A DNA stretch of 64,000 bases from Candidatus Zambryskibacteria bacterium RIFCSPHIGHO2_01_FULL_46_25 (GCA_001825155.1 MHVH01000005.1:3528-67527), one strand, 5' to 3'. Shown: positions 13,365 to 63,482, counted from the first letter of the stretch. Made by a program: numbers and translations. The notes: generated by a model from the letters alone, not told the origin.

Positions 13365-13412
13365 AAAATCCCATATACGTTATAATTATGCGGTCGCACA
13401 ATAGTAGCGTAT
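13365..13412. repeat. Left direct repeat containing a 36-bp dyad site (13376-13411)
   Basis: About 42/48 identical to 13992-14038. The core is TACGTTA-N7-GCGGTCGC-N7-TAGCGTA, which overlaps a TATAAT and the ATG of the next gene. Confidence 0.85.
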
Positions 13413-13977
13413 GGGTAAATTAGAAGAAAAAAGCGGAAAAAGATCCAAAAGAAAGCATTTGCAATACGCCATATTTCAAACTGTTGCCGCTGTCGGGGTT
13501 TTAAGCGCGGCTGTCATGGCCCCGAACGTACTAATTGCCATGGATAAGCTCGGCTCGATTCCAAACAGAAGACAGAAAGAATATATTAGTTCATCTGCCA
13601 GTAAATTAGTCAAGCGAGGACTGCTTCACTTCGATGGCAAAAGATATCAAATGACCTCAATAGGGGAGAGTCTATTCCGGCGTTGGCAATTTGCAGATTT
13701 CCAGATCCAAAAACCTAAGAGATGGGATAAAAAGTGGCGGGTTATGATTTTTGATATCCCGGAGAAGAAAAGAAAGATCAGAAATGATCTAACCACGTTA
13801 TTTCGCGCGGCCGGCATATACCGTCTCCAAAACAGCGTTTGGGTATATCCGTATGAATGCGAGGATATCATTACTTTGCTCAAAACCGATTTCGGCATCG
13901 GCAAGTATCTTCTATATATGATTGTCGATGAGCTTGAAAATGATAAATATTTGCGTCAGCACTTCGGTCTTATCTAG
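13411..13977 (+). CDS. HTH + Cas2-like (PaaX central domain) protein, stand-alone
   Basis: A winged-helix-like segment (SASKLVKRGLL..YQMTSIG) is followed by WDKKWRVMIFDIPE..R..LQNSVW, the PaaX-central/Cas2-like signature. No cas1 or array is nearby. Confidence 0.75.
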   Translation: MGKLEEKSGKRSKRKHLQYAIFQTVAAVGVLSAAVMAPNVLIAMDKLGSIPNRRQKEYISSSASKLVKRGLLHFDGKRYQMTSIGESLFRRWQFADFQIQKPKRWDKKWRVMIFDIPEKKRKIRNDLTTLFRAAGIYRLQNSVWVYPYECEDIITLLKTDFGIGKYLLYMIVDELENDKYLRQHFGLI

Positions 13978-13991
13978 CTCAATTTAATTAA

Positions 13992-14038
13992 AAAATCCCT
14001 ATACGTTAAAGTCATGCGGTCGCACAAAAGTAACGTAT
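13992..14038. repeat. Right direct repeat containing a 36-bp dyad site (14002-14037)
   Basis: The core is TACGTTA-AAGTCAT-GCGGTCGC-ACAAAAG-TAACGTA. Confidence 0.85.
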
Positions 14039-14095
14039 CTACACAATTGGTGATGATTTAAAAACGATATCTTTTCTATCTGCTATAATATTTCC

Positions 14096-14938
14096 ATGCC
14101 GGAAACAGCGGACACGATAACTATAATCAAGGCTTCGGGGCAAAGAGAGGCTTTCGACCCGGAGAAACTGCGCTTCTCGCTTTTAAACTCCGGCGCGTCG
14201 CAGGAGGAGGCAGAAGAAGTGTTGAAGCATCTAGAGCCGGAGCTCAAGAACGGTATGTCTACGCATGATATTTACCATCATGCGTTCTCCATTCTCACCA
14301 AGATGAGCCGCCCGGTCGCCCGAAGTTATTCGTTGCGCCGCGCCGTCATGGATCTTGGCCCGTCTGGCTTTCCTTTCGAGGATTTCGTTGCCGAGATTTT
14401 GCGGGCTCAAGGTTTCCAGTGCATTACCCGCCAGACAGTTATAGGTGGCTGTGTGCCTCATGAGGTGGATGTCGTGGCTTACAACAACAAGAAACTTATT
14501 ATGGTTGAGGCCAAGTTCCACAACGAACTCGGCACGAAGTCCGATCTCAAGGTGGTGCTCTACGTCAAGGCGCGCTTCGATGACATCAAAGACAATGTAT
14601 ATGACTACGGCGGCAATGATAGAAAAGTTACAGACAGCTGGCTTGTGACCAATACCAAATTTTCCTCGACGGCGATCCACTATGCCGAGTGCAAGAATAT
14701 GACGCTTATCGGCTGGAATTATCCGGAGAAGAATAATCTCCAAGATATGATTGAGAACGAAGGTCTGCATCCCGTCACTTGTCTTACCACGCTTTCGAAC
14801 GATGAGAAAAAACAGCTTCTAGCTGGAGGCGTCGTGCTTTGCTCGAGTATCAAGGAGAGGCCACAGGTGCTTAAGGATCTTCTTGGCTCCGCCTTCGATG
14901 CTGATTCAGTACTTAATGAAATTAACGAACTAAAATAA
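14096..14938 (+). CDS. ATP-cone domain + Mrr-like PD-(D/E)xK restriction endonuclease domain protein
   Basis: IIKASGQREAFDPEKL (ATP cone), followed by GFPFEDFVAEI, EVDVVA, VEAKFH and LVTNTKFS. Confidence 0.8.
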   Translation: MPETADTITIIKASGQREAFDPEKLRFSLLNSGASQEEAEEVLKHLEPELKNGMSTHDIYHHAFSILTKMSRPVARSYSLRRAVMDLGPSGFPFEDFVAEILRAQGFQCITRQTVIGGCVPHEVDVVAYNNKKLIMVEAKFHNELGTKSDLKVVLYVKARFDDIKDNVYDYGGNDRKVTDSWLVTNTKFSSTAIHYAECKNMTLIGWNYPEKNNLQDMIENEGLHPVTCLTTLSNDEKKQLLAGGVVLCSSIKERPQVLKDLLGSAFDADSVLNEINELK

Positions 14939-14957
14939 TTCGACTAACTCACTATAA

Positions 14958-15407
14958 ATGATAAATCTTTTAAATATTTCCCCCGCTTACGAACCATTGG
15001 CCTACCTTGTGCTCGCGCTTGTGCTAGGTTCGCTTCTGGGCATGGAACGCACACTTGCTCACAAGACCGCCGGCGTTCGCACTTATGGGCTGGTTTCCAT
15101 GGGTTCGGCGCTCTTCATCCTAATTGCCAAGTACGTCATACCGACAGTAGAGGCTTATAACTACGACCCTATGCGCATAGCGGCCGGAGTTGTCATGGGC
15201 ATCGGTTTTCTCTGCGGCGGGGTAATCATCTTTAAGGACTCCCAGCTCTCCGGACTTACCACGGCGGCTGGACTCTGGGTGGCCGCGGGTATTGGCATGG
15301 CAGTCGGATATGGGCTAGTCATGCTCGCTGTCTTCGCTACCGCGGCAACGCTTGTCGTCTTTACGTTGTTCTGGTTTATCGAGCATAAAATAATCTCGAG
15401 AACTTAA
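14958..15407 (+). CDS. MgtC/SapB family membrane protein
   Basis: GMERT..AGVRTY, DPMRIAAGVVMGIGFL and GLTTAAGLW. Confidence 0.9.
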   Translation: MINLLNISPAYEPLAYLVLALVLGSLLGMERTLAHKTAGVRTYGLVSMGSALFILIAKYVIPTVEAYNYDPMRIAAGVVMGIGFLCGGVIIFKDSQLSGLTTAAGLWVAAGIGMAVGYGLVMLAVFATAATLVVFTLFWFIEHKIISRT

Positions 15408-15988
15408 TGGAAGAGAGGGAAGCCGAGCTCAAGAAGATTAAGGAAGATGTGTTAAATTTGACCGCCTCTCCGCTCTATGCGTATCGTGTAGAAAATAATT
15501 ACTTTCCGGTAATTGGAGAAGGCAATCACACGGCGAAAATTATGTTCATAGGCGAAGCGCCGGGGCAGAATGAGGCCAAGACTGGCAGACCTTTCTGCGG
15601 CAGGGCTGGAAAAGTGCTGGATACGCTTCTACAGAGTATCGGCATAGACAGGAAAGATGTTTACGTCACCAATATAGTTAAGGATCGACCGCCGGAGAAC
15701 CGCGACCCCTTGCCGGATGAAATCGAACTCTACGCGCCGTTTCTCGACCGGCAGATTGCCGCCATCAAGCCGGCGGTTATCGCCACTCTCGGTCGTTTCT
15801 CCATGCAATATGTCATGAGTCGATACGGGCTTGAGTTCGAGTTTGATAGTATTTCAAAAATTCACGGGCAAGTTTTTACTGCGGACAAATTCAAGGTCAT
15901 TCCTCTCTACCACCCCGCCGCTGCCATTTATAATCAGCACCTACTCGATACCCTGAAGGAAGATTTCAAAAAACTTGCAGATTTGTAG
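15407..15988 (+). CDS. Uracil-DNA glycosylase, family 4 type
   Basis: FIGEAPG..E..GRPF, TNIVKDRPPENRDP and YHPAA. Confidence 0.9.
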   Translation: MEEREAELKKIKEDVLNLTASPLYAYRVENNYFPVIGEGNHTAKIMFIGEAPGQNEAKTGRPFCGRAGKVLDTLLQSIGIDRKDVYVTNIVKDRPPENRDPLPDEIELYAPFLDRQIAAIKPAVIATLGRFSMQYVMSRYGLEFEFDSISKIHGQVFTADKFKVIPLYHPAAAIYNQHLLDTLKEDFKKLADL

Positions 15989-16037
15989 GGGATGTGGGAT
16001 AATAGGGAATAGATTGCTCACACTGATTGGAGTTGAT

Positions 16038-16274
16038 ATGAGTTGCTCTCATCCGATGGCGTCGCTCCACGTGATTTTGTTCGGCTTCGAGAACAGGTAC
16101 TGTTCTCGTTGCAAAAACATCATCAACGCACACGGCGAAGTGGTTCCGGCGCCGCCGGCGCCGGTTCCGAGCTTCGTCGAGAGTTGCGAGACGATCGTCG
16201 ACATGGCGGAGTTGCCGATCAAGCTCTTCCGCCTCGGTCGGTCTCTCCTGAGAGGTCGGCGTTTCGCGAGATAA
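16038..16274 (+). CDS. Small orphan protein with a CxxC motif
   Basis: GGAG ribosome-binding site, MSCSH...YCSRCK, and a strong hairpin directly after the stop. Confidence 0.5.
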   Translation: MSCSHPMASLHVILFGFENRYCSRCKNIINAHGEVVPAPPAPVPSFVESCETIVDMAELPIKLFRLGRSLLRGRRFAR

Positions 16275-16286
16275 TGATCTCGTTCG

Positions 16287-16316
16287 AAAGGCCGGGCGTG
16301 TTCGCCCGGCCTTTTC
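16287..16316 (+). terminator. Intrinsic terminator
   Basis: AAAGGCCGGGCG-TGTT-CGCCCGGCCTTTT. Confidence 0.75.
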
Positions 16317-16337
16317 TATTGTGTTATATTCATTGTA

Positions 16338-17933
16338 ATGGATTCAGCCCAAATCAGGCAGAAATTCTTGAAATTTTTTGAGGAAAGAGGGCATGCCGTG
16401 GTGCCCTCCTCCTCACTCGTGCCGGAGGGGGACTCGTCTGTTCTCTTCACCACCGCGGGCATGCAGCAGTTCAAGCCTTACTATCTCGGTTCGAAAGATC
16501 CTATAAAAGATTTCGGCTCCAAGAATACTGTTTCAATACAGAAGAGCATGCGTACTTCCGACATAGACGAAGTGGGGGATGAGAGCCATCTCACGTTTTT
16601 CGAAATGCTTGGCAACTTCTCCTTCGGCGGCTACTGGAAGAAGGAGGCTATAGAATACGCGCACGAATTCATAACGAAGGAAATGGGTTTGAAAATAGAT
16701 TACGTAACCGTTTTTGAAGGGGAGGAAGGTGTGCCGGAAGATACGGAGTCCGCGGAAATTTGGAAATCAATTGATTCGGAAATTGTTATCAAGAAAGCCG
16801 GCCGAAAAGATAACTTCTGGGGTCCGACAGGGGAAGAAGGTCCGTGTGGACCGACGACAGAAATATATGTAAATGGTCTCGAAATTTGGAATATTGTCTT
16901 CAACGAGTATTACCAAGATAAAGCTAAGAAGCTAACGAAGCTAGAGAAGCTAGGAATAGACACCGGCATGGGTCTCGAGCGCCTTGCCATGGTTTCGCAA
17001 AATGTTTCAACTCTTTTTGAAACGGATCTTTTTGCGAATATAATTTCGCGGTTGCCCGACGAAGTGCCCATAAGAATCAAGAGGATTGTCGCGGATCACA
17101 CTCGCGCTATCGAAGCCATGCTGGGAGAAAATCTCCAACCGTCGAATAAGGACCAGGGTTATGTATTGCGCAGACTGATAAGGCGAGTGCTTATGTATGA
17201 AAATAAATATGTATTTAAATACGTAATTAATTCCGAAGTTTTCGATTCCGAAAGGAAGAAATTCAATGAGACCTTGGGATCTGGCTTAAAGCAGTTCGAA
17301 AGAGGTGTTGACCCGTTCATTCTTTTTACCACCTATGGCTTTCCAATCGAGTTGACCGAAGAGATTGCAAAAGAGAAGGGAGTCGCGGTTGATAGGAAAA
17401 AATTCGATGAGGATTTCAAACAACACCAGGAGATTTCCAAAGCGGGTATGGAGCAGAAATTCAAAGGCGGTTTGGGAGGGCACTCGGACATGGAGGTGAA
17501 GCTTCATACCGCCACGCACCTTTTGCATCAGGCGCTCCATGACGTCTTGGGTGACGAGGTGGGGCAGAAGGGCTCTAACATTACGCCCGAAAGATTGCGT
17601 TTTGACTTCTCTTTCCCCAGAAAGATGACTGAAGAAGAGAAAAAGAGGGTAGAAGAGATAGTAAATAAAAAAATCGCTGCCGCCCTTCCAGTGCAACACT
17701 CGGTGTTGCAGAAAGAGGAGGCGTTAAAGACCGGTGCGCGCCACTTCTTCGACCAGAAATATCCGGACGAAGTATCTATCTACTACATTGGCGAGTCGCT
17801 CGAAAGCGCGTACTCCAAGGAATTCTGTGGCGGGCCACATGTCGCGAATATAGGCGAGTTAGGGCATTTCAGAATTACGAACGAAGAATCGTCATCAGCC
17901 GGTGTTCGCCGGATAAAAGCGGTATTGGAATAG
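16338..17933 (+). CDS. alaS: Alanine--tRNA ligase, compact form lacking the C-Ala domain
   Basis: LFTTAGMQQFK, HLTFFEMLGNFS, IDTGMGLER, HTATHLL and EFCGGPHV. The protein ends at AGVRRIKAV. Confidence 0.95.
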   Translation: MDSAQIRQKFLKFFEERGHAVVPSSSLVPEGDSSVLFTTAGMQQFKPYYLGSKDPIKDFGSKNTVSIQKSMRTSDIDEVGDESHLTFFEMLGNFSFGGYWKKEAIEYAHEFITKEMGLKIDYVTVFEGEEGVPEDTESAEIWKSIDSEIVIKKAGRKDNFWGPTGEEGPCGPTTEIYVNGLEIWNIVFNEYYQDKAKKLTKLEKLGIDTGMGLERLAMVSQNVSTLFETDLFANIISRLPDEVPIRIKRIVADHTRAIEAMLGENLQPSNKDQGYVLRRLIRRVLMYENKYVFKYVINSEVFDSERKKFNETLGSGLKQFERGVDPFILFTTYGFPIELTEEIAKEKGVAVDRKKFDEDFKQHQEISKAGMEQKFKGGLGGHSDMEVKLHTATHLLHQALHDVLGDEVGQKGSNITPERLRFDFSFPRKMTEEEKKRVEEIVNKKIAAALPVQHSVLQKEEALKTGARHFFDQKYPDEVSIYYIGESLESAYSKEFCGGPHVANIGELGHFRITNEESSSAGVRRIKAVLE

Positions 17934-17980
17934 TTCGACTTCGCTCACTATAAATAATAAAATAAGGTATAATTACCAAT

Positions 17981-19285
17981 ATGCCGAAAAAAATTGAGGA
18001 TATAATCGTTTCCGACAGGAGAAGGAGCATTCGGGATATTCCTATTCCAGAAAGCAGGCGCAAGCTTCCTGCCAAAGCGCCGCGCATGGATGCGATAGAA
18101 GACACTTCATCTCTTCCTCCCGTACGCACGCCCATTCCTCGCCATAAGAAAGGTTTCCGCAGGAAAATATGGACTGCCGGTGCCGTTGCAGTTGTTATCC
18201 TGTTGTTCGCCATTCTCTCGCTTATGAATGGCGCGACATTGAGTTATGTGCCGAAATCGGCCGCTCTCGCGTTTGATAACGATGCCTACACCGCTCACAA
18301 GTCCGGCGCGAATGGCCTCTTCTATAGTGTGGTCAAGCTCTCTCGCGATAAAAGTATGAATGCTCCCGCTGGAGCTGAGCAGAATGTGAGCCGGAAGGCT
18401 TCCGGAGTAATAGTAGTCTACAACGATAGCGCCGAGTCCCAGCGCCTGGTTGAGAACACGCGTTTCGAATCTCCGTCCGGCAAGATTTATAGGATAAGCA
18501 AAGCAATAACCACGCCGGCAAGGAGAGCCGTAAGCGGCGTTACCCAACCCGGTTCCGTGGAGGCGACTGTCTATGCCGATGTGGCGGGTGAAGCGTATAA
18601 TTCCGCGCCGACGGATTTTACCGTTCCAGGACTTAAAGGTACTTCGCGCTATAGCACTATTTATGCTCGCTCGAAAACTCCTCTTGCCGGAGGCTTTGTC
18701 GGCATGGAAAAGGTAGTCAAGGCGGAGGACCTTAGCCGGACCAAGACGGAACTGGAAACCGCCTTAAGAGAAGAACTCTACCGCGAGGCGGAAGCGGAGG
18801 TGCCGGAGGACTTCATCCTTTTCCGAACTCTTTCAACATTTGATTTCGAAGATTTGCCCCAGGCTCCAGGTAGTGGCGGTAGCGCGGTTGTGAGTATGAG
18901 AGGCCACCTCTATGGCGTCATGTTCAAGAAGAGCGATTTCGCCGGTTTCCTCGCAGAGAAAAAACTCGGCACGGCTCCTGCTGAAATTATAGAAATTCCT
19001 GATTATTCCGCCCTTGAAATCGCCTTTGCCTCAGTACCTCCGGCGGATCTCCTGGCTTCAAACGATGTGAGTTTCAAAATTAAGGGTAATGCTCAGGCGG
19101 TTTGGGTAACAGACGAAGTTTCTCTCCGCGCCGATTTGGCTGGTCACCACAAGAGGGATGTGCCCGGCGTTCTCAACAATTATCCGACCATCGCTTCCGC
19201 GAGTGTTACCGTGAGACCGTTCTGGAAGTCCTCTGTTCCCGCCGAAGCGGAGAAAATCAAGATAACTAAACTCTCTTCCGAGTAG
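17981..19285 (+). CDS. Hypothetical single-TM protein with a large extracytoplasmic beta-rich region
   Basis: 434-aa ORF with one TM segment and KASGVIVVYN, LVENTRF, GEAYN and FTVPG. Confidence 0.65.
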   Translation: MPKKIEDIIVSDRRRSIRDIPIPESRRKLPAKAPRMDAIEDTSSLPPVRTPIPRHKKGFRRKIWTAGAVAVVILLFAILSLMNGATLSYVPKSAALAFDNDAYTAHKSGANGLFYSVVKLSRDKSMNAPAGAEQNVSRKASGVIVVYNDSAESQRLVENTRFESPSGKIYRISKAITTPARRAVSGVTQPGSVEATVYADVAGEAYNSAPTDFTVPGLKGTSRYSTIYARSKTPLAGGFVGMEKVVKAEDLSRTKTELETALREELYREAEAEVPEDFILFRTLSTFDFEDLPQAPGSGGSAVVSMRGHLYGVMFKKSDFAGFLAEKKLGTAPAEIIEIPDYSALEIAFASVPPADLLASNDVSFKIKGNAQAVWVTDEVSLRADLAGHHKRDVPGVLNNYPTIASASVTVRPFWKSSVPAEAEKIKITKLSSE

Positions 19286-19286
19286 T

Positions 19287-19517: not shown

Positions 19518-19565
19518 GAAAAGTCTTGCCAAGAAATCAGGCTTAGGTTACAATGCATTCTTGTC

Positions 19566-19682
19566 ATGAAAGTAAAGGCGGCGGTAAGAAAAATGTGCGC
19601 CAAATGCCAGATAGTCCGCAGGAAGGGCTATGTTTATGTTGTCTGCAAGGCCAATCCCCGTCATAAGCAAAGACAAGGTTAA
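19566..19682 (+). CDS. rpmJ: 50S ribosomal protein L36 (not in the ORF track)
   Basis: Translates as [38 protein letters not shown]. Confidence 0.95.
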
Positions 19683-20065: not shown

Positions 20066-20069
20066 AAAT

Positions 20070-52899: not shown

Positions 52900-54261
52900 A
52901 TGACACTCAAGCTTCACAATACTTTGACGGGCAAGGAGGAGGAATTCCACCCGATAGAGAAAAGCAAGACAAAGATGTTTGTCTGTGGGCCTACCGTTTA
53001 CGACTATTCCCATCTGGGCCACGGCAAGACCTATACCCAGTTTGACGTAATCGCCCGGGCACTAAGGTATCTGGGCCATGAATTGACTTACGTCGTGAAT
53101 ATTACCGATATAGACGACAAGATAATAAAACGCGCCACCGAACGAGGGGTGGATCCGGCCGCACTTGCGCAGGAATACGAAAAGGCCTATGTCGAAGATA
53201 TGCGGGCTCTTAATGTAGTGAATATAGATAAATACGCTCGCGCCCATGATTATGTGCCGGAAATAGTAAGTCAGGTAAAGCGTTTGATTGAGAATGGTTT
53301 GGCGTACAAAATCTCCGACGGTTATTACTTCGACGTAAAGAAATTCGATGATTACGGGAAGCTGTCCAGGAGAAATATTTTGAAACCCAATGACGCGGTT
53401 TCGCGCATAGACGAGAATCCGGAGAAGAGAAATCCGGGCGATTTTTGCTTGTGGAAATTACGCAAGAAAGGCGAACCATTCTGGTCATCGGAGTTGGGCG
53501 AGGGCCGTCCAGGCTGGCACATAGAGGACACCGCCATTACCGAGAAAGAGTTCGGAGCGCAATACGATATTCACGGCGGCGCCGTGGATCTCATTTTCCC
53601 GCACCATGAAGCGGAAATCGCCCAGATGGAATCAATCTCGGGCAAGAAGCCCTTGGTTCGTTATTGGCTCCATACGGGTTTTTTAAACATCAGTTCCGAA
53701 AAAATGTCTAAGAGTCTCGGCAACTTCCTCACCATCCGAGATGTATTGGCGAAGGGCGTTTCTCCCCTGGCTTTGCGCTATTACTTCCTCACCGCGCATT
53801 ACCGCACGCCCATGGATTTCTCGTGGGAAGCGCTCGAAGCGGCGCAGAACGCATACCGCAAACTCAAGGAGTTTGTTTCCACCCCCACCAGCCTCCCCCT
53901 TACCAAGGGGGAGGTGCCAGAGGCGGAGGGGGTGTATTTGGATGAATTTAAATCTGCGCTTGAAAACGATTTAAATACTCCAGAAGCGCTAGGGGTGGTG
54001 TGGAATCTTATCAAAGATGAATCAATCTTCCCCGCCAACAAGCGCGCGACGCTTCTTGAATTCGACAAAGTACTCGGCCTCGACCTGGAACACAATGAAT
54101 TTTTGAATGTGCCGCCGGAAGTCGTTGAGCTGGGTGAACAAAGACAGAAGGCAAAGGAGAATAAAAATTTTGCCGAAGCGGATAAGATAAGGCAAGAGAT
54201 CGAGAACAAGGGCTTCGAAATCCGCGACACCGAAGGCACGTTTATTATAATGAAGAAATAG
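52900..54261 (+). CDS. cysS: Cysteine--tRNA ligase
   Basis: CGPTVY..HLGH, GRPGWHIE, DLIFPHHE and KMSKSLGN. Confidence 0.97.
   Translation: MTLKLHNTLTGKEEEFHPIEKSKTKMFVCGPTVYDYSHLGHGKTYTQFDVIARALRYLGHELTYVVNITDIDDKIIKRATERGVDPAALAQEYEKAYVEDMRALNVVNIDKYARAHDYVPEIVSQVKRLIENGLAYKISDGYYFDVKKFDDYGKLSRRNILKPNDAVSRIDENPEKRNPGDFCLWKLRKKGEPFWSSELGEGRPGWHIEDTAITEKEFGAQYDIHGGAVDLIFPHHEAEIAQMESISGKKPLVRYWLHTGFLNISSEKMSKSLGNFLTIRDVLAKGVSPLALRYYFLTAHYRTPMDFSWEALEAAQNAYRKLKEFVSTPTSLPLTKGEVPEAEGVYLDEFKSALENDLNTPEALGVVWNLIKDESIFPANKRATLLEFDKVLGLDLEHNEFLNVPPEVVELGEQRQKAKENKNFAEADKIRQEIENKGFEIRDTEGTFIIMKK
53881..53933. repeat. DUF559-type palindromic element in frame inside cysS
   Basis: ACCCCCACCAG-CCTCCCCCTT-ACC-AAGGGGGAGG-TGCCAGAGGCGGAGGGGGT, which translates as TPTSLPLTKGEVPEAEG. 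Confidence 0.7.
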
Positions 54262-54300
54262 AAAAGGTTCGACGTTGACAACGTCGAACCTGCACGGCGG

Positions 54301-54558
54301 TTACTTGGTCGGGATAGGACAGGAGCAGTACTTCACTTTTTTGCTTGGCGCTCCCATCTTGATGCCGTGGCAGTGCGGACAGAATATCCGCTTGCACCTG
54401 TTGCACTCATGATCTTCAACTTCCCCGAGAATGCATGATGGACATGATCCCTCGCAGCCACAGCGATTGTTGGGATTTACCCCGTCCCACTCTCCGACGA
54501 CGACAGGGAATCTGTCTGTAGGATACTCGTATGTCAGCTCATCAATCTTAGGATTCAT
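54301..54558 (-). CDS. Small Cys-rich putative zinc-binding orphan
   Basis: CGC..SCPSC..CNRC..FCPHCH..CSC, with an AAGGAG site upstream. Confidence 0.65.
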   Translation of the reverse strand: MNPKIDELTYEYPTDRFPVVVGEWDGVNPNNRCGCEGSCPSCILGEVEDHECNRCKRIFCPHCHGIKMGAPSKKVKYCSCPIPTK

Positions 54559-54579
54559 TAGGAACTCCTTCCGCGGAAT

Positions 54580-54645
54580 ACTCTACAATAATATTTAAAC
54601 TTCCGCAACTACATAATAACAATACGACCGTCGGCTTATTATGTA
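54580..54645 (-). promoter_or_regulatory. 66-bp promoter + 36-bp dyad module, copy 1
   Basis: TTGCGG-17-TAGAGT on the minus strand, with dyad 54610-54645. It is a direct repeat of 55306-55371. Confidence 0.75.
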
Positions 54646-54734
54646 TACGATTTAAAAACGCTATAGCGTAGTTATTTCGTAATAAAACGAATCGCCGGAC
54701 GTCCCATCGGGACGTCCGGCGTGAAAAGAACAGA

Positions 54735-55235
54735 CTAGAGAAGTTGCTCCAGGCGGCTTGTCAATTCTCTCTCGACCTCGCAGAGCCCCCCGACTTCTTC
54801 ACGAATTTTCCTGGCGGCCATGTCGTCCATGACGTGAAAGTCGACGATTGTCCCAATCATCGTCGCCACGTTATGGACCTTCATCAACAAGTCCTCGACG
54901 TCTTCTGGTAGTTCGCCCGAAATCGGGAAGACCCCGAGGAAATCGAAGAGCTTGTTGACCATGCTGCGGTTGATCTTCGACACGATGCCGGTCATCGCCC
55001 GGTCAATATCCGTGTCCTGGTACGTTTCCAGGAGCTCGAGGGAAATCTCGATGTTTTCCCCGTCGAACTTGCGCTCGCCGGGCAGAACTCTCACGAAGTT
55101 CCTTCGTACTCCTGGACCGTTCGGGTCTGTTTCCTCCGGCCATTCCGTAATCTGGAGCTGATTCGGTATCTTCCCCAGTTCTTCCAACAGCCGGGCCAGC
55201 GCCTGAATCGGAACCCTTGTCTTGAAAAGAGCCAT
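54735..55235 (-). CDS. Orphan hypothetical protein
   Basis: AGGAGG site, GC-rich codons and a hairpin at 54693-54721. Confidence 0.7.
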   Translation of the reverse strand: MALFKTRVPIQALARLLEELGKIPNQLQITEWPEETDPNGPGVRRNFVRVLPGERKFDGENIEISLELLETYQDTDIDRAMTGIVSKINRSMVNKLFDFLGVFPISGELPEDVEDLLMKVHNVATMIGTIVDFHVMDDMAARKIREEVGGLCEVERELTSRLEQLL

Positions 55236-55305
55236 GCTGTCCTCCTGTAGGCAAAGCCTACCTGGAAACTTCGAGTGCGGAATTGCTCTCGAATGGACAA
55301 CCTAA

Positions 55306-55371
55306 ACTCTACAATAATATTTAAATATACGCAACTACATAATAAGCCGACGACCGTTTGCTTATTATGTA
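55306..55371 (-). promoter_or_regulatory. 66-bp promoter + 36-bp dyad module, copy 2
   Basis: TTGCGT-17-TAGAGT on the minus strand, with dyad 55336-55371. Confidence 0.75.
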
Positions 55372-55457
55372 GTTGTGGCTAGGGAGTTACAAAATAAAAG
55401 ACCGCGCCCCTCGATGTTACTCGGGGCGCGGCTGAGGACTTCTTTGGCTTTTTCGCT

Positions 55458-55700
55458 CTACCTCCGGCGGGGAGAGCTGGTCAGTTGACGAACGAGCTCG
55501 CCGAAGGTGAAAGTTCCTGGCGAGTTGACCACCACCTCTTTGTCGAAAGTGATGTGGCAGATTTGGGCGACGCCAATCGCTCTTGAGCTGCCGAAGACAT
55601 ACCCGTCTTCTGTCAGCGTTTCTCGTGGGATGTGGAGCCAGCGGCTGACGTAGCTGGCTATCTCTTCTCGAGACGGGGTTCTTGTTGCATAATCGCGCAT
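55458..55700 (-). CDS. Small orphan protein
   Basis: AGGAGG precedes the ATG at 55700, and a hairpin lies at about 55402-55431. Confidence 0.6.
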   Translation of the reverse strand: MRDYATRTPSREEIASYVSRWLHIPRETLTEDGYVFGSSRAIGVAQICHITFDKEVVVNSPGTFTFGELVRQLTSSPRRR

Positions 55701-55787
55701 CAATACCTCCTGTTTTGCACCATGCCTTTTCTTACAATACTGCATTTTTATAATAAGTCAAATATAAAAAGGAAAAGAGCGAGCGCG

Positions 55788-55925
55788 TTAGCGCTCGCTC
55801 CTCTGCCGGCTTCCCCTCGGGATCCGCTGGACGGGCGGGTTGTCGAGCCCGTCGAAGCGGCTCCCGCTTCCCGGCCAGGTTGGCGCGGGACGTTTGGGAG
55901 GGGCCGGCTTTCTGGTGGTCTTCAT
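55788..55925 (-). CDS. Putative 45-aa Pro/Arg-rich peptide
   Basis: GAGAGG site and TTGACA upstream. A terminator-like hairpin overlaps the stop. Confidence 0.4.
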   Translation of the reverse strand: MKTTRKPAPPKRPAPTWPGSGSRFDGLDNPPVQRIPRGSRQRSER

Positions 55926-56056
55926 ACATGCCTCTCTTTTTATATCATACACCCAAATACTTAATTTGTCAAGTGTTATCTTATTCACAACTTAAACACC
56001 GTTTTCTGCCCATTTCTAGATTGTTTCTATAAGACTCGAACTGATACGATGTGTTC

Positions 56057-57481
56057 ATGCAAATTGTCGGCACCTCCACCCTAAACAGCGCCGGGCTGCG
56101 CATCCCTCCCCACTCGGCTGAAGCCGAGATGGCTCTCTTGGGTTCTATCATGCTTCGTCCGGACGCCATTTACGAAATCTTGGACATCGTTACACCTACC
56201 TCATTTTATTTCGAGAAACATCGAACGATTTTCGAAGCGATGCTCGAACTTTTTGGCAAACACAGTCCGATAGATATTCTCTCTCTTTCCTCACGCTTGA
56301 AGGAGAAGGACCAGCTCGAGCGTCTTGGCGGCACGACTTATCTTACGGAACTTTCTAACACGGTTCCCTCATCCGCGAACGTCAAGCACTACGCCGAGAT
56401 TGTGATGAAGAAATATATGATGAGGCAACTTATAGAAGCCTCCGAGCATCTCTCGCATTTAGGCTTCAACGAAGCTGGTGATCTTGAGGAAATTCTGGAC
56501 GCGGCGGAGAAAAAAGTTTTTGACATCACCCAGCACTTCGCCGGTTCGGCGCGCTTCAAAGATCTCACTCCCCTTCTCACGGAAGCGTTCGAAAGATTTG
56601 AGAAGCTCTCAAGCGCTGAGCACGAGCTCCGCGGCGTGCCAACCGGGTTCAAATCACTTGACGACATTCTCGGCGGCTTCCAGAATTCCGACCTCATCAT
56701 CATTGCCGCCAGGCCCTCGGTCGGCAAGACAGCTCTCGCTCTCGATATCGCCAGGAGAACCGCAAGCGAGCATCAGACTCCCGTCGGCGTTTTCTCGCTC
56801 GAGATGAGCGCTGACCAGCTTGTTGACAGAATTGTCGCTGCCCAATCGAAGACCGACTCCTCTATCATCAGGAAAGGCATAAGGACACAGGCGGGCACTT
56901 GGCGCGAAGACGTGTTCAAGAATATTCGCGACGCCCTCGACGATCTTTCTCGTACTCCTATCTTCATAGACGACCAACCGGGCAATACCATTATGAAAAT
57001 GAGAAGTGCCGCGAGGAAGCTCAAGATTGAAAAGGGTCTCAAGCTCCTTGTCGTCGATTACCTCCAGCTCATGGTGCCATCTACCACCCGCACCAACGAC
57101 TCGATGGTCCAGCAAGTGACCGAGATCTCCCGCTCCCTAAAGCATCTAGCCCGCGAGCTCAACATTCCGGTCATCGCACTCTCGCAAATGTCGCGCGCCA
57201 TCGAGACCCGCGGTGGCAAGCCTAAGCTCTCCGACCTGCGCGACTCTGGCTCTCTCGAGCAGGACGCGGACGCGGTTATCTTCATCCACAGTAACGAAGA
57301 GGATTTGCGCGATGAGAGCGGCCACATGAAAGATGTGCAGAGGAAAGAGCTTATCATAGCCAAACACAGGAACGGTCCCTTAGGCTCGGTCATTCTAGAC
57401 TTTCACACTCGCTTCAACACCTTCGTCGAGATAGATTTCTCGAACTATGGCAAAGCGGAAGAAGATTTTAAGAGCTTCTAA
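56057..57481 (+). CDS. dnaB: Replicative DNA helicase
   Basis: PPHSAEAE, AARPSVGKT, VDYLQL and LSDLRDSGSLEQDAD. Confidence 0.97.
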   Translation: MQIVGTSTLNSAGLRIPPHSAEAEMALLGSIMLRPDAIYEILDIVTPTSFYFEKHRTIFEAMLELFGKHSPIDILSLSSRLKEKDQLERLGGTTYLTELSNTVPSSANVKHYAEIVMKKYMMRQLIEASEHLSHLGFNEAGDLEEILDAAEKKVFDITQHFAGSARFKDLTPLLTEAFERFEKLSSAEHELRGVPTGFKSLDDILGGFQNSDLIIIAARPSVGKTALALDIARRTASEHQTPVGVFSLEMSADQLVDRIVAAQSKTDSSIIRKGIRTQAGTWREDVFKNIRDALDDLSRTPIFIDDQPGNTIMKMRSAARKLKIEKGLKLLVVDYLQLMVPSTTRTNDSMVQQVTEISRSLKHLARELNIPVIALSQMSRAIETRGGKPKLSDLRDSGSLEQDADAVIFIHSNEEDLRDESGHMKDVQRKELIIAKHRNGPLGSVILDFHTRFNTFVEIDFSNYGKAEEDFKSF

Positions 57482-57484
57482 AAC

Positions 57485-58105
57485 ATGAATTCCATCGACA
57501 AACTTACGGAAATATTTTCGAAATTTCCGGGCATTGGGCCTAGGCAGGCGAAACGTTTTGTCTACTATATTCTCTCAAGGAATGGCAGTTTCTCGAGTGA
57601 GCTTGTCACGGCGGTTGAGAATTTGAAGAAAGAGATAACACAGTGTGCCGAATGCCAGAGGTTTTTCGTTTACCCCGAGCGGAGTCGGGGGGCGAAACTT
57701 TGTTCTATCTGTGCCGATGATACTCGCGACAGTTCAATGTTAATGCTCGTGCCACGCGATATTGACCTTGAAGCGGTGGAGAGAAGCGGAGGCTACAAGG
57801 GCTACTACTTTGTCCTTGGTGGAGTGGTGCCGATTCTTGAGAAAGAGCCGGAGAAAAAGATAAGAATAAATAAGTTACAAGAAACAATTTCCAAAAGAAA
57901 AAATTTGAAAGAAGTGATTCTTGCCATGAATGCCAATGCCGACGGCGAGCATACGGCCGATTACATAAAAGAGCAGTTATCCACAGCTTACCAAGGCAAG
58001 GCCTTGGCGTTTTCGATTCTTGGGCGCGGGCTATCGACTGGCATCGAACTTGAATACGCCGACCCGGAAACCCTCAAAAACGCCTTTTTGCATAGGACGA
58101 AATAA
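57485..58105 (+). CDS. recR: Recombination protein RecR
   Basis: PGIGPRQAKR, a C4 zinc finger and a TOPRIM region (YFVLGG, DGEHTA, ELEYAD). Confidence 0.95.
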   Translation: MNSIDKLTEIFSKFPGIGPRQAKRFVYYILSRNGSFSSELVTAVENLKKEITQCAECQRFFVYPERSRGAKLCSICADDTRDSSMLMLVPRDIDLEAVERSGGYKGYYFVLGGVVPILEKEPEKKIRINKLQETISKRKNLKEVILAMNANADGEHTADYIKEQLSTAYQGKALAFSILGRGLSTGIELEYADPETLKNAFLHRTK

Positions 58106-58501: not shown

Positions 58502-58507
58502 AGCGCT

Positions 58508-59548
58508 TTATTCTACTGATGGTTTGTCCAAAGTCAACGCCTCGACCTCCATGCCGGTACCGGTAATGCGAAGCACGTCTTTATCAATCTTTTTGAACTC
58601 TTTGCCAGCGGAATTGTAGTGGTTGACGGTGGTCGAGAGGGCGTTTCCCAGCTTGCCGTAATACTCCTCGTATGCCGAAAGGTGCTTCTGGAGGTCGCCG
58701 ACATTCTTGATGATGGTCTTGACCGACTCTTCTATCTGCATGCCCTTAAGGCCCTGGAGCACGGTCTGGAGGTATGCTAGGAATGATGTCGGGGAAACGA
58801 TGAGTACGTGGTATTTGGAAGCGGCGCGCTGGATGAGAGACTCGGAATCTTCCTTCAAGGCGCCGATTTTGTTTACAATAAGGTCGTAGTAAATCGCTTC
58901 GTGCGGTATGAACATGAAAGCGAAGTCCATGGTCCCTTGTCCCGGTTGAATATATTTTGCCGTCTCGGCAATTCTGTTCTTGAGGTCGGCGACGAAGACC
59001 TTCTCGAGACTTTCTCTCTGCATCGAGTCCTTCTCCTCCACGATGCGGTTGTAATTTTCAAGCGAGAACTTGGAATCAATCGGAATAATTTTATCCTTCA
59101 CGAATACTGCCGCATCAACTATGGTGCCGTCCGGGAACGGATACTGCATTTGGTAGCTCCCTGGTGGCAAAACATTTTTGAGCAGCGTTTCGAGATAATA
59201 CTCGCCGAGCACTCCGCGCTGCTTCGGATTCTTCAAAATATCCTGGAGACTTTGCAGCTGGTCGGCGAAGGAGATAACCTGCTTATTGGTCTCATCGAGC
59301 TTGGTCAGTCCTTGCGTTACTTCTCTTATGAGTTTGGCCGACTCGCCGAACTGGGTGCGCACGGACTCGTTCATCATCTTGGTGCTCTCCGCCATTTTGT
59401 GGTCCACAGTTCTCGAAAGTTCGTTAAGTTGGGTTAAGAGCAAGTTCAATCCTTCCCCACCCCCTTCTTTCTTTTTCCCGGCAAGTTGGAAAACAAGCCA
59501 CACATTGACTAAAAGGAGCGCTGCTACGATAATGAGTGTCCAATCCAT
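58508..59548 (-). CDS. rmuC: DNA recombination protein RmuC
   Basis: KQRGVLGE, PIDSKF, DFAFMFIP and VSPT. Confidence 0.92.
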   Translation of the reverse strand: MDWTLIIVAALLLVNVWLVFQLAGKKKEGGGEGLNLLLTQLNELSRTVDHKMAESTKMMNESVRTQFGESAKLIREVTQGLTKLDETNKQVISFADQLQSLQDILKNPKQRGVLGEYYLETLLKNVLPPGSYQMQYPFPDGTIVDAAVFVKDKIIPIDSKFSLENYNRIVEEKDSMQRESLEKVFVADLKNRIAETAKYIQPGQGTMDFAFMFIPHEAIYYDLIVNKIGALKEDSESLIQRAASKYHVLIVSPTSFLAYLQTVLQGLKGMQIEESVKTIIKNVGDLQKHLSAYEEYYGKLGNALSTTVNHYNSAGKEFKKIDKDVLRITGTGMEVEALTLDKPSVE

Positions 59549-59562
59549 AACCAGATTATAAC

Positions 59563-60015
59563 ATGTCACTCCACCAAGATATAAAAGTGCAGATGGTCGA
59601 AGCTATGAAAGCTAGAGAAGCTACGAAGCTTTCCGTTTTGCGCGGGCTTATGGCTTCTTTCACCAACGAGCTTGTGGCGAAGAAGAGGAAGCCGGACGAA
59701 GAACTTGGGGATGAAGATGCTCTCTCCGTTATCTCTCGCGCCGTCAAGCAGAGGAAGGATTCTATAGAACAATTCGAGAAAGGCAATCGCCAGGACCTCG
59801 CGGATGTCGAGAAGGCGGAAATGGCAATCCTCGAAACGTATCTCCCCGCCCAGATGTCTCAGGAAGAAGTGGAATCGTTCATCAATGATAAGATAACGAA
59901 AGAGAATCCAGAGAAAGATAAGAAGAATCAGTTCATGGGTCTGGTGATGAAAGAACTCAAGGGCCGAACTGACGGAAGCGTGGTCAAAGAAGCCCTTGAC
60001 AAAGTCTGGGGTTAG
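59563..60015 (+). CDS. GatB/YqeY domain protein
   Basis: AMKAR, KQRKDSIEQF and YLPAQMS. Confidence 0.92.
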   Translation: MSLHQDIKVQMVEAMKAREATKLSVLRGLMASFTNELVAKKRKPDEELGDEDALSVISRAVKQRKDSIEQFEKGNRQDLADVEKAEMAILETYLPAQMSQEEVESFINDKITKENPEKDKKNQFMGLVMKELKGRTDGSVVKEALDKVWG

Positions 60016-60049
60016 TGCTAAGATAGAAAATAGAAATGGAGGTTCTCTC

Positions 60050-60190
60050 ATGAGAAAAGTGCATTTGGGATGCCGTCGTGGCCGCAAGGGTCGTCGGACG
60101 CGCAAGCCGGCGGCGACCCTCAGCAAGCTCATGCGAAAAATGAAGGCGACGGGCGTGCAACCCGACCCGCCGCACTGGCAGGACAGGTAA
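60050..60190 (+). CDS. Putative 46-aa basic peptide
   Basis: GGAGG site and a hairpin terminator at 60198-60230. Confidence 0.5.
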   Translation: MRKVHLGCRRGRKGRRTRKPAATLSKLMRKMKATGVQPDPPHWQDR

Positions 60191-60325
60191 GGTTTCAAAA
60201 AGGGCAGGCGCCCGTTGCGCCTGCCCTTTTCCTATCCCCCACTTTTCATTGACGCTGTACCGCGCTTATAAGAGAATTGGGCTAGAAATCTAGTCGTTCA
60301 CAACTCACAATCGGAGGTCTCGCCC

Positions 60326-60517
60326 ATGTTTCCAGTCTCGCCTCGCCAGTGGTGCCAGGATCGTCGCAGATATACCAGACGCAGTACCCACCGTATCGAC
60401 AGGACGGGCAAGCGAGCGCACGAGCTCAACCGCGCGTCAGAGTCCGGACCACTCGCGAATCACCAAGCGCAAGTTGCCGCTGAGAAGAGAGCCGAGTCAA
60501 GCGACGACGAGGAGTAG
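60326..60517 (+). CDS. Putative small Arg-rich orphan
   Basis: TTGACG promoter, GGAGG site and a hairpin with T-run at about 60546-60574. Confidence 0.45.
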   Translation: MFPVSPRQWCQDRRRYTRRSTHRIDRTGKRAHELNRASESGPLANHQAQVAAEKRAESSDDEE

Positions 60518-60656
60518 ATTCCGTGTTAGTTTTCATCTAAAACCGTGGCCGGCACTTGCGTGCCGGTCATTTTTGTCCCACAACCTTGCTATCCACACTT
60601 TTGGCAGCCGAAATGTATTAAAATAGTTTAACAATTATCAATTAGCGAGAAGTCTA

Positions 60657-62954
60657 ATGAAGCCAAAATTCGCCACCAGCAAGAACGCCAATCTAAAAAC
60701 TATTATCAAGCGAGACGGAAGCAAAGTCCCTCTCAATCCAAAGAAGATTACGAATGCGGTCACGAGGGCTTTGCAAGAGACGAAGGAGTACCGTCCGGGC
60801 GTGGCGGAGAAGATTACTGACGCGGTGGTGAGGAAGCTTGCTTTGCGAAAGTCCTACGACAAGAAGTATGTGCCAATGGTTGAGGGCATCCAGGATCTCG
60901 TGGAGATGGAGCTCATGCTTCAAAAATTTACGGCTACGGCCAAGGCCTACATTCTCTACCGGGCCGAGCGCACCAAGTCTAGAGAGCAGAACGCCATGAT
61001 TCCTCAGGAGGTCAAAGACAAAATTGCCGAGAGCAGTAAGTACTTTAAAGCTCCATATCAAGAATTTATTTTCTACCAGTTCTATTCCAAGTGGAGGCCG
61101 GAGTTCGGACGCCGAGAAACTTGGGTTGAGGCGATAGACCGCTTCATGGATTATATGAAAGTGAAGATGGGCAGCATGCTCACTACTGGTGAATACTCGG
61201 AAGTGCGCGAAGCGATTTTGAAGCAGGACATCTGTCCTTCCATGCGCCTCTTGTGGTCGGCGGGCAAAGCATGCGATGCATCAAACGTTTGCGCTTACAA
61301 CTGCGCCTATATCGCCCCGGTTTCCTGGCGAGACCTTTCCGAGATTATGTATGTCTCAATGTGTGGCGCCGGGTGCGGCTTCTCCGTTGAACCGGAGAAC
61401 GTGGGCAAGTTCCCACAGATTAAAAAGCAGACCGGTCATATGGCGCCAAAAATTGTGATTGAAGACAGCAAGGAAGGATGGTGCAAGGCCTTTGTGGAGG
61501 CCTGCACCGCATGGGAGAAGGGCAAGGACGTGGAACTCGATTATTCTCTCATTCGTCCGGCTGGGGCTAAACTAGCGACCATGGGTGGTCGCGCTTCGGG
61601 CCCCGCTCCCCTTCAGGAACTTATGCAATTTACGAAGAGGAAGATGCTCGCCAAGCAGGGCCGCAGGCTCACCACTCTCGATTTGCATGACATCATCTGC
61701 CAAATAGGGCTTATTGTCGTTGCTGGCGGCGTGCGTCGCTCAGCGCTCATCTCCCTCTCTTCTCTTGATGACACCGATATTCGCGATGCCAAGAAGGGCA
61801 CCTTCTGGCAGACGGAGGGCCAGCGCTCGATGGCCAATAATTCCGCGGTCTATGAAGCCAAACCAACGGCCGAGGAATTCATGCAGGAGTGGACATCCCT
61901 TGTCACTTCGCACTCAGGCGAGCGAGGTATCTTCAATCGCGGAGGCTTGCAGTTCCAGGTGCCCAAGAGGCGCTGGGAAGTGCTCAAGAAGGCAAAATTG
62001 CCGGGAGTCAATCCTTGCGGCGAGATTTATCTCCAATCCAAACAATTCTGCAATCTGACTTCTATTGTGGTTAGGCCGGCGGACGATATGGAAAATCTGA
62101 AGAAGAAAATGCGTCTTGCGACTCTTCTCGGCACCTACCAGGCGACACTTACCGACTTCGGTTATCTTTCGAAAGAGTGGAAGAAAAATTGCGAGAAGGA
62201 ACAATTGCTCGGTGTTTCTATCACAGGCTATTACGACAACGAACTCATAAGGGATGATAAAAACCTGCAAGCCTTGCGCGAAGAATCGATAAAAACGAAC
62301 AAGAAGTACGCCAAGCGTTTCGGCAAGAACGAATCGACAGCCATCACTTGCGTGAAGCCGCACGGCAACTCCGGCCAGCTTCTGGGCGTGGGCTCCGGCA
62401 TGCACACTTGGTACTCCCACTACTACATCCGCCGCGTGAGAATCTCCGCCAATGACCCACTTTTGAAGCTCGCCAGAAACCAGGGCGTGCCTGTATTTCC
62501 GGAAGTTGGTTACTCAACTTCGAATGCCGCGACCATGGTTATGGAATTCCCTTGCAAGGCTCCCGAAGGCGCTTTGGTCAATAAGGACGTGACCGCTCTT
62601 GAGATGCTTGAGGAGTGGAAGAGACTCAAGGTAAACTTCACCGAGCATAATCCTTCTGTCACCATATACATTGGCGATGACGAATGGATCTCGGTGGCGA
62701 ACTTCGTTTACAAGAACTGGGATATCGTGGGCGGACTCTCCTTCCTTCCAAGGTCGAACCATGTCTACCAACTCGCCCCGTATGAGGAGATAACGAAAGA
62801 AGAATACGAAAGAAGGGTCAAGGAGCTTCGCCATCTGGACTTCTCGAAACTCGTTGTTTATGAGCAAGAAGACAATACTGTTGGTGCCAGAGAATTGGCC
62901 TGCGCCGGTGGAGTTTGCGAAATTGATGTGGTGCCGGCAGAAGCAGCGGCGTAA
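60657..62954 (+). CDS. nrdJ: Class II (adenosylcobalamin-dependent) ribonucleotide reductase with ATP cone
   Basis: ATP cone, YNC, GGVRRSA, NPCGEI, TCVKP and C-terminal CAGGVC. No beta-subunit gene is adjacent. Confidence 0.88.
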   Translation: MKPKFATSKNANLKTIIKRDGSKVPLNPKKITNAVTRALQETKEYRPGVAEKITDAVVRKLALRKSYDKKYVPMVEGIQDLVEMELMLQKFTATAKAYILYRAERTKSREQNAMIPQEVKDKIAESSKYFKAPYQEFIFYQFYSKWRPEFGRRETWVEAIDRFMDYMKVKMGSMLTTGEYSEVREAILKQDICPSMRLLWSAGKACDASNVCAYNCAYIAPVSWRDLSEIMYVSMCGAGCGFSVEPENVGKFPQIKKQTGHMAPKIVIEDSKEGWCKAFVEACTAWEKGKDVELDYSLIRPAGAKLATMGGRASGPAPLQELMQFTKRKMLAKQGRRLTTLDLHDIICQIGLIVVAGGVRRSALISLSSLDDTDIRDAKKGTFWQTEGQRSMANNSAVYEAKPTAEEFMQEWTSLVTSHSGERGIFNRGGLQFQVPKRRWEVLKKAKLPGVNPCGEIYLQSKQFCNLTSIVVRPADDMENLKKKMRLATLLGTYQATLTDFGYLSKEWKKNCEKEQLLGVSITGYYDNELIRDDKNLQALREESIKTNKKYAKRFGKNESTAITCVKPHGNSGQLLGVGSGMHTWYSHYYIRRVRISANDPLLKLARNQGVPVFPEVGYSTSNAATMVMEFPCKAPEGALVNKDVTALEMLEEWKRLKVNFTEHNPSVTIYIGDDEWISVANFVYKNWDIVGGLSFLPRSNHVYQLAPYEEITKEEYERRVKELRHLDFSKLVVYEQEDNTVGARELACAGGVCEIDVVPAEAAA

Positions 62955-63020
62955 ACTTATACCAAGCTAGACCCCTCACACAGCCTTCCCCTTCGCAGGG
63001 GCGGGTTTTTGCATACAAAC

Positions 63021-63140
63021 AAAAAGGCCCACGCGCGGTGCGGGCCAGTGGTTGTAGCGGGAGGGCTGGCTGGACTTATGGAGCCAAGTGGGAAGGACAG
63101 GACAGTCCTCCATGCCTGGCGGGAACCAACCCTACCCGCA
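63021..63140 (-). ncRNA. Candidate ~120-nt structured ncRNA
   Basis: Promoter TTGAAT(63174-63169)-17-TATAAT(63151-63146), a long closing stem GCGGGTAGGGTTGGTT/AGCCAGCCCTCCCGC, and its own terminator GGCCC..GGGCC-TTTTT. Confidence 0.55.
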
Positions 63141-63228
63141 CCCATATTATAAGACGTATGATTCTTGAATTCAAGTCAGAATTGTGTCTTGAAAAGAGCC
63201 CAAATTTCCGCTAGAGTATGCGGGTTAG

Positions 63229-63300
63229 GGCCCTATCGTCTATCGGCTAGGACACAGCCTTCTCAAGGCTGGAAGCGGAGTTCGATTCTCCGTAGGGTCA
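63229..63300 (+). tRNA. tRNA-Glu (anticodon CTC), CCA not encoded
   Basis: Acceptor stem GGCCCTA/TAGGGTC, anticodon arm CAGCC-TTCTCAA-GGCTG and T arm CGGAG-TTCGATT-CTCCG. Confidence 0.95.
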
Positions 63301-63482
63301 TAAAAACATGTTATGTTTTTATGAGTCGCAGGCACGACGGTGCCGAGGCGTGACCACACAAGATTTGCCTTACTTAGCTGTCCAACAGCTAAGTTGTGAC
63401 ACACTATGATATATCATAGTGTCCTACGTTATCTTTTAGCTATAGCAGAATTGTAACGTATGTGAATTTTTGCAAACGCGAA
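63301..63482. repeat. Stack of different palindromic elements downstream of the tRNA
   Basis: Hairpins or dyads at 63301-63321, 63323-63355, 63372-63394, 63401-63422 and 63425-63460. Confidence 0.75.

Follow-up and report, generated by a model that had tools for sequence, protein, structure and literature searches.

The window analysed here is a stretch of 64,000 nucleotides from the ultra-small groundwater bacterium Candidatus Zambryskibacteria bacterium RIFCSPHIGHO2_01_FULL_46_25 (GCA_001825155.1 MHVH01000005.1:3528-67527). It contains six dispersed 36-bp dyad sites, two of which bracket a gene (13411-13977, plus strand) for a 188-amino acid (aa) protein that combines a winged helix with a PaaX_M/Cas2-like domain (PF20803, E=1.5e-18). 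The upstream site (U; 13376-13411, plus strand), of the TACGTTA / GCGGTCGC type, contains a TATAAT at 13381-13386 and ends on the A of the start codon, and the downstream site (D; 14002-14037, plus strand) is a direct repeat of U, 24 bp past the stop codon. The other four, to which no strand is assigned, do not adjoin a gene of this family and are here called free sites. Two of them, at 54610-54645 and 55336-55371, are of the TACATAA / ACGACCGT type and match the U site of a paralogue elsewhere in the genome (C5:190898) at 30/36 and 32/36 positions, respectively. The third (54646-54681; TACGATT / GCTATAGC type) abuts the first on its right, sharing 19/36 positions with it, and the fourth (63425-63460; TACGTTA / GCTATAGC type) lies 124 bp past tRNA-Glu, which it separates from genes of the opposite orientation; neither is close to the sites of a resident gene, the best matches being 28/36 and 26/36. 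All six had been proposed from the sequence, and we confirmed their coordinates, arms and cores, as well as the gap of 0 within the abutting pair.

The sites exceed what shuffled controls yield, as the original prediction implied. Using a rule of TAC-N30-GTA with at least 5/7 symmetric arm positions and 3/3 in the core, we found 6 sites in the window, where 200 Markov resamples averaged 0.055 (maximum 1), and 25 against 0.2 (15 resamples) in the whole 582-kb genome (G000). Likewise, a profile built from 16 gene-bracketing sites retrieved 34 genome sites above 15 bits, the 16 training seeds included, and none in 3 shuffles. An assembly artefact is excluded, because the site sequence is repeated in contigs of public groundwater and soil runs: a contig of run X10 covers 12941-14374, including the sites at 13376 and 14002, with 0 differences, and one of run X3, which may be the source sample, covers 53511-58074, including 54610-55371, with 1 difference. 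The exact 7-7-8-7-7 geometry first attributed to the sites did not survive, since this split is only a drawing convention and the symmetry extends into the supposed spacers (0.48–0.79 versus 0.32–0.44 when permuted). Arms are imperfect in two of the six window sites (the right arm at 13376 reads TAGCGTA, 6/7, and arm symmetry at 54646 is 5/7), and a 34-bp variant occurs in contig C3 of the genome, after 26213. A possible left-half remnant at 14055-14070 (plus strand), which had been listed as a partial relative, matches 54649-54664 at 15/16 bases, has no right half and reaches a best in-register profile score of -32.8, so that it is a half-site at most.

Nine paralogues of the gene are present in this genome, and all nine, including a distant 165-aa copy, are bracketed by a direct pair of their own site. 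We examined 104 full-length family genes, these 9 and 95 more from relatives that belong almost entirely to the same genus, and 84 of them have a matched direct pair, with a sequence private to each gene. U extends from -35 to the ATG in 57/84 pairs, and D lies between -9 and +63 bp from the stop codon. Since U covers the start codon and the promoter -10 box, located at -30 in 39/58 and at -12 in 9/58 of the -35-class genes, bound protein would probably repress its own gene. Where the centres of a pair are asymmetric they are mostly in direct orientation (22 direct, 2 inverted, 3 other), and the central two bases of U and D match in 74/84 pairs and mismatch in 10/84. The spacers of U are nearer to those of its own D (9.5/14 identical positions) than to those of the D of orthologues (7.7/14; higher in 45/63 comparisons and lower in 10/63), indicating that U and D of one gene evolve together. 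This arrangement would also suit plain transcription factor operators, each paralogue being a PaaX-like protein that represses itself through U and D, across a loop of ~630 bp, and acts on a small regulon by way of the free sites. Such a reading, which we consider doubtful, is favoured by the position of U over the -10 box and ATG, and is opposed by the fact that D faces a convergent gene in 54/83 units, which indicates that D is mostly not an operator of the downstream gene.

The assignment of the sites to the helix-turn-helix (HTH) and Cas2-like protein and its paralogues, already part of the original prediction, was upheld by this bracketing, by gene-site co-occurrence and by the residue-base co-variation described below. 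Genomes of the genus carry 0–9 gene copies, and sites are present in 24/26 genomes with the gene and in 2/11 without it (Spearman 0.83), counts that include non-independent kin and several genomes of just 72–85% completeness. Site type tracks protein clade and locations shift between clades, as judged from a quick tree with many open forks from which 6/110 genes were excluded by length. The closest protein relatives are named Zambryskibacteria or Patescibacteria, and the family is filed in databases as 'Cas2', 'PaaX' or hypothetical; it amounts to 2218 clusters at 50% identity (E<=1e-10), some of which may be other PaaX-like proteins. We found no homolog in a phage collection, and one distant PaaX-like match among plasmid records.

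The 188-aa protein comprises N-terminal helices, a winged helix at about residues 51–93 and the PaaX_M/Cas2-like domain at 103–174. Its AlphaFold model shows a winged helix and a ferredoxin-like domain, with a mean predicted local distance difference test (pLDDT) score of 63.9 and an unreliable segment at residues 1–55 (<50). The top rows of a Foldseek search were Rv0674, PaaX and then Cas2 proteins, all of them weak and none reaching E<=0.001, and phmmer against PDB sequences returned nothing useful. Four residues are almost invariant: D115, R124 and S142 are kept in 104/104 family proteins and Q140 in 103/104, and among distant cluster representatives D115 is kept in 150/150, R124 in 149/150 and both Q140 and S142 in 148/150. 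The corresponding residues are E/(A or L)/A/S in E. coli PaaX and T/R/R/G in Rv0674. The catalytic cleft of the VapD dimer is formed by the strand-1 Asp and the Q-x-S Ser (PMC11980593, PMC3351183); by motif and fold, rather than by superposition, D115 and S142 would correspond to this pair.

The protein also appears to read the site. Across 73 genes, residue 58, in the recognition helix, goes almost without exception with arm base 4 (Y58 with G in 39/40; I58 or V58 with A in 25/25), and core bases 14–15 co-vary with residues 125 and 121 and the centre with residues 141 and 118, which flank D115, R124, Q140 and S142. These co-variations, uncorrected for phylogeny, suggest that the winged helices read the arms and that the Cas2-like cleft sits over the core, where the family would thus keep a possible nuclease cleft. 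Recognition is likely to be of double-stranded DNA, because five of the six window sites fold with only -3 to -5.7 kcal/mol. Selection for a hairpin was rejected as an explanation, since the excess of G-T pairs (132 vs 98) is not above the general strand bias. Both the residue-base code and the weak hairpins would equally suit operators. Short family members (127–131 aa; L115, L117 and L122) have paired sites that keep the core and inner spacers (GCCATGGC) and lack the outer arms, as if arm reading had been lost.

Beyond the bracketing pairs, our site set contains 151 free sites and 160 adjoining a family gene. The free ones were gathered from ~11 genomes, at loci selected for lying around known sites, with a whole-genome scan in G000; a few of them (L053, L013, L029) are in fact mis-scored gene-bracketing sites. 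Free sites resemble the sites of resident genes more than expected (mean best identity 28.0, versus 26.6 and at most 27.2 in permutations), and near-identical pairs of free sites (>=34/36) are 29/2336 within genomes and 48/33149 between genomes. Free copies end sharply at 36 bp, with a flank identity of 0.74 at the first outside base and of 0.24–0.44 from the second base outward. TACGTTA-type free sites contain the TATAAT of U in 10/72 cases, like D (4/33) and unlike U (30/33). Exact 36-bp copies are implausible by point mutation, and a copying process would be needed under any reading, operators included. Insertion sequences and miniature inverted-repeat transposable elements (MITEs) were rejected as candidates, because no direct target duplication was found at 80 isolated sites and paralogues are at most 79% identical within a genome.

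Placement of the free sites, as given by crude open reading frame (ORF) calls, avoids divergent promoter regions. Free clusters occupy 29 convergent, 8 divergent and 62 co-directional gaps (99 in total), against a genome background of 55 convergent and 66 divergent gaps (p=6e-4), and within co-directional gaps the upstream stop is the closer end in 40 cases and the downstream start in 22. Only 3/108 clusters with flanking calls were scored inside an ORF, one of them being a mis-scored D site. For instance, a relative (G013) has an insert of ~60 bp, made of one site and ~25 bp, between the stops of convergent recR and rplU, which touch each other in the window at 58105/58106. The scarcity of divergent gaps counts against operators, and of the regulon that had been predicted only a minority part stands: a -35 box lies 1–2 bp from the site, with a correctly spaced -10 box, on 15/226 free flanks. 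This contact exceeds expectation in the sense that TTG starts at 1–2 bp continue into a promoter in 15/35 cases versus 21/251 elsewhere.

Both copies of the TACATAA type in the window show this contact. Sigma-70-like promoters, proposed from consensus matches only, lie on the minus strand at 54580-54608 (TTGCGG-17-TAGAGT), 1 bp from the site at 54610 and facing an 85-aa ORF (54301-54558), and at 55306-55334 (TTGCGT-17-TAGAGT), 1 bp from the site at 55336; site and promoter together form a direct repeat of ~66 bp with 86% identity. An intrinsic-terminator-like hairpin (54693-54721, minus strand) follows a 166-aa ORF (54735-55235, minus strand) located between the sites at 54610/54646 and that at 55336. 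On the minus strand the doublet at 54610-54681 therefore lies between the hairpin and the next promoter, filling the gap between terminator and -35 box. Other promoter-abutting sites are found at rpsA in one genome and at rpsP in two genomes, with different site types. The contact either is an activator-like geometry or results from insertion as close upstream of a promoter as can be tolerated; operators would imply activation at these promoters and cooperative action where the sites of two paralogues abut, and the recurrence of sites at rpsP, cysS-dnaB and rpsA in several genomes favours them. It is set against them that the same locus usually bears other site types or none, 15/22 cysS-dnaB loci and 19/19 tRNA-Glu loci of relatives being without a site.

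The most distinctive property of the free sites is their exact abutment with sites of another type. Allowing gaps of 0–30 bp, we found 29 pairs in 10 genomes of the genus, of which 24 have gap 0, 3 (in one genome) gap 1, and one each gaps 8 and 13. Exactly abutting pairs comprise 60/151 free sites, and a gap-0 neighbour is present on 60/302 free flanks versus 0/320 gene-bracketing flanks. All 30 doublets are heterotypic, their members being identical at 13–25/36 positions, and 19% of random same-genome pairs reach 26; no doublet joins two TACA-type ends, versus 5.5 expected. A strict pattern scan of a genome-contig collection returned 8 loci, two of them resembling unrelated tandem repeats, and the TAC-type doublet pattern was absent from 400 other genomes of the class and 49 of other genera of the family, lineages that may use other site sequences. 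Abutment may originate by targeted insertion, by deletion between neighbouring sites helped by microhomology, or by selection for touching dimers, and none of the three explains the 0/320 neighbours at gene-bracketing sites. Three abutting sites occur at C3:26142-26247 of G000, the third with 6-bp spacers (34 bp), and a fourth follows 39 bp later. A perfect 20-bp palindrome of another family (63402-63421; C5:215455, C5:223166) lies 3–6 bp from a 36-bp site at 2/3 of its copies in G000, the same arrangement recurs after rpsA in G014 (L225:1956), and other palindromes are also flush against sites in relatives.

Comparison of loci among relatives bears on whether the sites are cassette ends or footprints. 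Among 30 mnmA loci, 6 have the gene with its site or sites (2 more are cut at contig ends), 2 a lone site, 16 neither and 4 other arrangements. Among 22 relatives' loci corresponding to the cysS-dnaB gap, which holds three free sites in the window, 2 (L061 and L069) have a full unit, 5 have free sites of other types and 15 have none, and no site was found beside tRNA-Glu in any of 19 relatives' loci. In all, 17/89 anchored free clusters are at loci that hold a full unit in another genome, and no unit was seen at the other 72/89. Near-identical direct pairs also bracket non-family cargo of ~430–500 bp in two relatives (G003, L240:880-1382, 36/36; G006, L221:2029-2603, 35/36). A U-gene-D unit, sometimes with cargo in place of the gene, might therefore insert at hot spots and collapse between its direct repeats to a single site, and doublets might then arise by deletion between two different footprints, aided by the A/TAC...GTA/T microhomology.

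We regard this footprint model as quite unlikely. The three states at mnmA, the full units in L061 and L069, the 17/89 shared loci and the bracketed cargo all speak for it, and a collapse would explain the absence of same-type doublets. On the opposite side, TACGTTA-type free sites lack the -10 box of U in the proportion seen for D, the abutting intermediates to be expected at gene-bracketing sites were found in 0/320 cases, the central two bases of U and D differ in 10/84 pairs, and 72/89 free clusters have no unit at their locus. The tyrosine recombinase of G000, the only one, is moreover single-copy and does not adjoin a unit. For a target of a site-specific tyrosine or serine recombinase, where partner sites with an identical central overlap and a linked recombinase gene would be expected, the 74/84 matching centres point one way and the 10 mismatches and this unlinked tyrosine recombinase the other. 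The proposal that the sites act as cassette ends fits the pair around each gene and a small number of pairs around cargo, and many free sites flank no cargo.

The reading that best accounts for the observed bracketing, paralogue-specific sequence, near-identical free copies, placement and exact heterotypic abutment is a repeat family resembling repetitive extragenic palindromes (REPs) and their REP-associated tyrosine transposases (RAYTs), to which we assign a probability of about 0.5. Its partner, the winged-helix and Cas2/VapD-fold protein, would likely bind the double-stranded site, repress its own gene and copy the site. As a dimer, it would place its winged helices on the arms (residue 58 on arm base 4) and its Cas2-like cleft over the core of the 36-bp dyad, and protein bound to the upstream site, over the -10 box and start codon, would shut off the gene. 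In the weakest step, the Asp/Ser cleft might then nick or cut in or close to the core, after which repair templated by another copy might keep the bracketing sites alike and write new copies into tolerated gaps. Such gaps would be those after stop codons, between a terminator and the next -35 box, or against a site held by another paralogue, and the whole gene-plus-sites unit would relocate rarely. A bolder and rather unlikely version makes the family a minimal selfish element, in which a winged-helix-guided Cas2/VapD-fold nuclease cuts its own site and writes precise copies, preferentially flush against the site of a different paralogue, thereby building heterotypic arrays.

Several observations weigh against a REP-like family. 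No cutting, excision or new insertion was observed, and no U-to-D joint was present among the joints listed from contig layouts of public runs. For many free sites no resident gene is close (11/20 in G000, for example, reach at most 30/36), selection by resident proteins could also produce the within-genome likeness, and chimeras between the centres of different types were not found, discordant arms occurring in 4/151 free sites and none clearly joining two types. No near-identical paralogues exist, the highest within-genome identity being 79%, and in 61/87 cases a protein's nearest neighbour comes from the same locus, indicating that the gene-plus-sites unit moves rarely. The invariant D/R/Q/S residues could instead contact the invariant C/G of the core, PaaX also keeping an acid and a Ser, and the co-variation and the placement carry the limits given above for phylogeny and for ORF calls. 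The promoters met on 15/226 free flanks, and especially those of rpsP with differing site types, suit activators or conserved regulation, and doublets of the TAC-type pattern turned up only in the genus and one Adlerbacteria record. The REP-like, regulon and footprint readings can be partly true together.

The RAYT partner is an IS200-related HUH tyrosine transposase. REP/REPIN-RAYT (TnpA-REP) systems (PMC3116915, PMC3337134, bioRxiv 119735) share with the present sites short, dispersed extragenic palindromes that flank their own, seldom copied partner gene, higher-order repeat clusters and several partner/repeat types per genome. In such systems the partner cleaves the repeat and moves it, and REPINs, the units that replicate, are inverted same-type pairs with a spacer that fold into a hairpin, whereas all 30 doublets found here have gap 0 and are heterotypic. 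The present partner differs in having a winged helix and a Cas2/VapD fold (PF20803), with no column in which His exceeds 60% of the 104 proteins, and its sites have weak hairpins, probably read as double-stranded DNA, and tens of copies rather than hundreds. The system works like REP/RAYT, yet it is not a member of that group, and it is neither PaaX nor a CRISPR Cas2.

PaaX from E. coli (PDB 8A39; TIGR02277) and Rv0674 (PDB 3KFW) have the same order of winged helix and Cas2-like domain and an autorepressor-like geometry of the upstream site, and their place as top structural rows favours operators. The family is, however, shorter than PaaX (188 aa versus 316 aa), without its C-terminal part, and scores 25.2 bits with TIGR02277 against a cut-off of 264.55. 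Further differences are a complement of as many as 9 paralogues, each with a private site, another site past the stop codon and the conserved D/R/Q/S residues. PaaX controls phenylacetate genes and responds to phenylacetyl-CoA; no paa genes lie beside the window copy, between mnmA and an ATP-cone nuclease gene, no genome-wide paa search having been made. With Cas2/VapD nucleases (PMC3351183, PMC11980593), the family shares a ferredoxin-like fold, an Asp after the first strand and the Q-x-S motif; it differs by the winged-helix fusion, by the lack of Cas1, of an array and of an antitoxin gene in the unit, and by cleft residues that co-vary with the DNA site.

The 36-bp length of the dyads, that of CRISPR repeats, the direct copies that bracket some genes and a score of 25.0 with TIGR01573 (cas2; cut-off 24.5) might suggest Cas1-independent CRISPR-like repeats, or integron-like attachment sites for a host recombinase, the Cas2-like gene being carried along passively. 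This is highly improbable: the genome, 96% complete, has no Cas1 (PF01867) and no repeat-spacer arrays, doublets are of the form A/B and not A-x-A, the site sequence follows the protein, and the only Rfam match in the window is the tRNA, with none to CRISPR.

Other features of the window surround these sites. The gene after 14037 (14096-14938), coding for an ATP-cone and Mrr-like nuclease, adjoins mnmA in most of the genus, whether or not a unit is inserted, and the trmD-rpoB gap holds a further pair of sites; the sites are thus not all beside accessory genes or the tRNA, as had been supposed. The cysS-dnaB gap holds three small orphan ORFs (54301-54558, 54735-55235 and 55458-55745). A homolog of the first, the Cys-rich 85-aa ORF, lies immediately past the D site of the full unit in G003, and the second, the 166-aa ORF, has no Pfam or NCBIfam family and no homolog among the relatives' loci compared. 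A conserved structured module follows tRNA-Glu (63301-63400; also in L269, L271, L280 and L281), with no Rfam match in the window at the gathering threshold, and a low-GC stretch (32–35%; 1927-4771) contains an asparagine-synthase-like gene and a 368-aa ORF.

A literature search, limited mostly to titles and abstract starts and with subscription journals largely outside its scope, found no paper on this system, on PaaX in Patescibacteria, or on PaaX together with Cas2 and structure; the new contribution here is the free sites. If the family spreads its own site, the REP/RAYT design would have been reached a second time from an unrelated protein, and this protein would be a small site-specific nuclease that comes in natural specificity variants; the roles that Cas2-fold proteins had outside CRISPR would also be illuminated. 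If the family proved to be a selfish element, it would represent a Cas2-fold protein that moves DNA repeats without Cas1 and with a readable residue-to-base code. Should the protein turn out to be no more than a regulator, a 0.6-Mb genome with exact heterotypic doublets and as many as nine orthogonal protein-site pairs would still offer a compact and testable operator set in a phylum whose regulation is little known.

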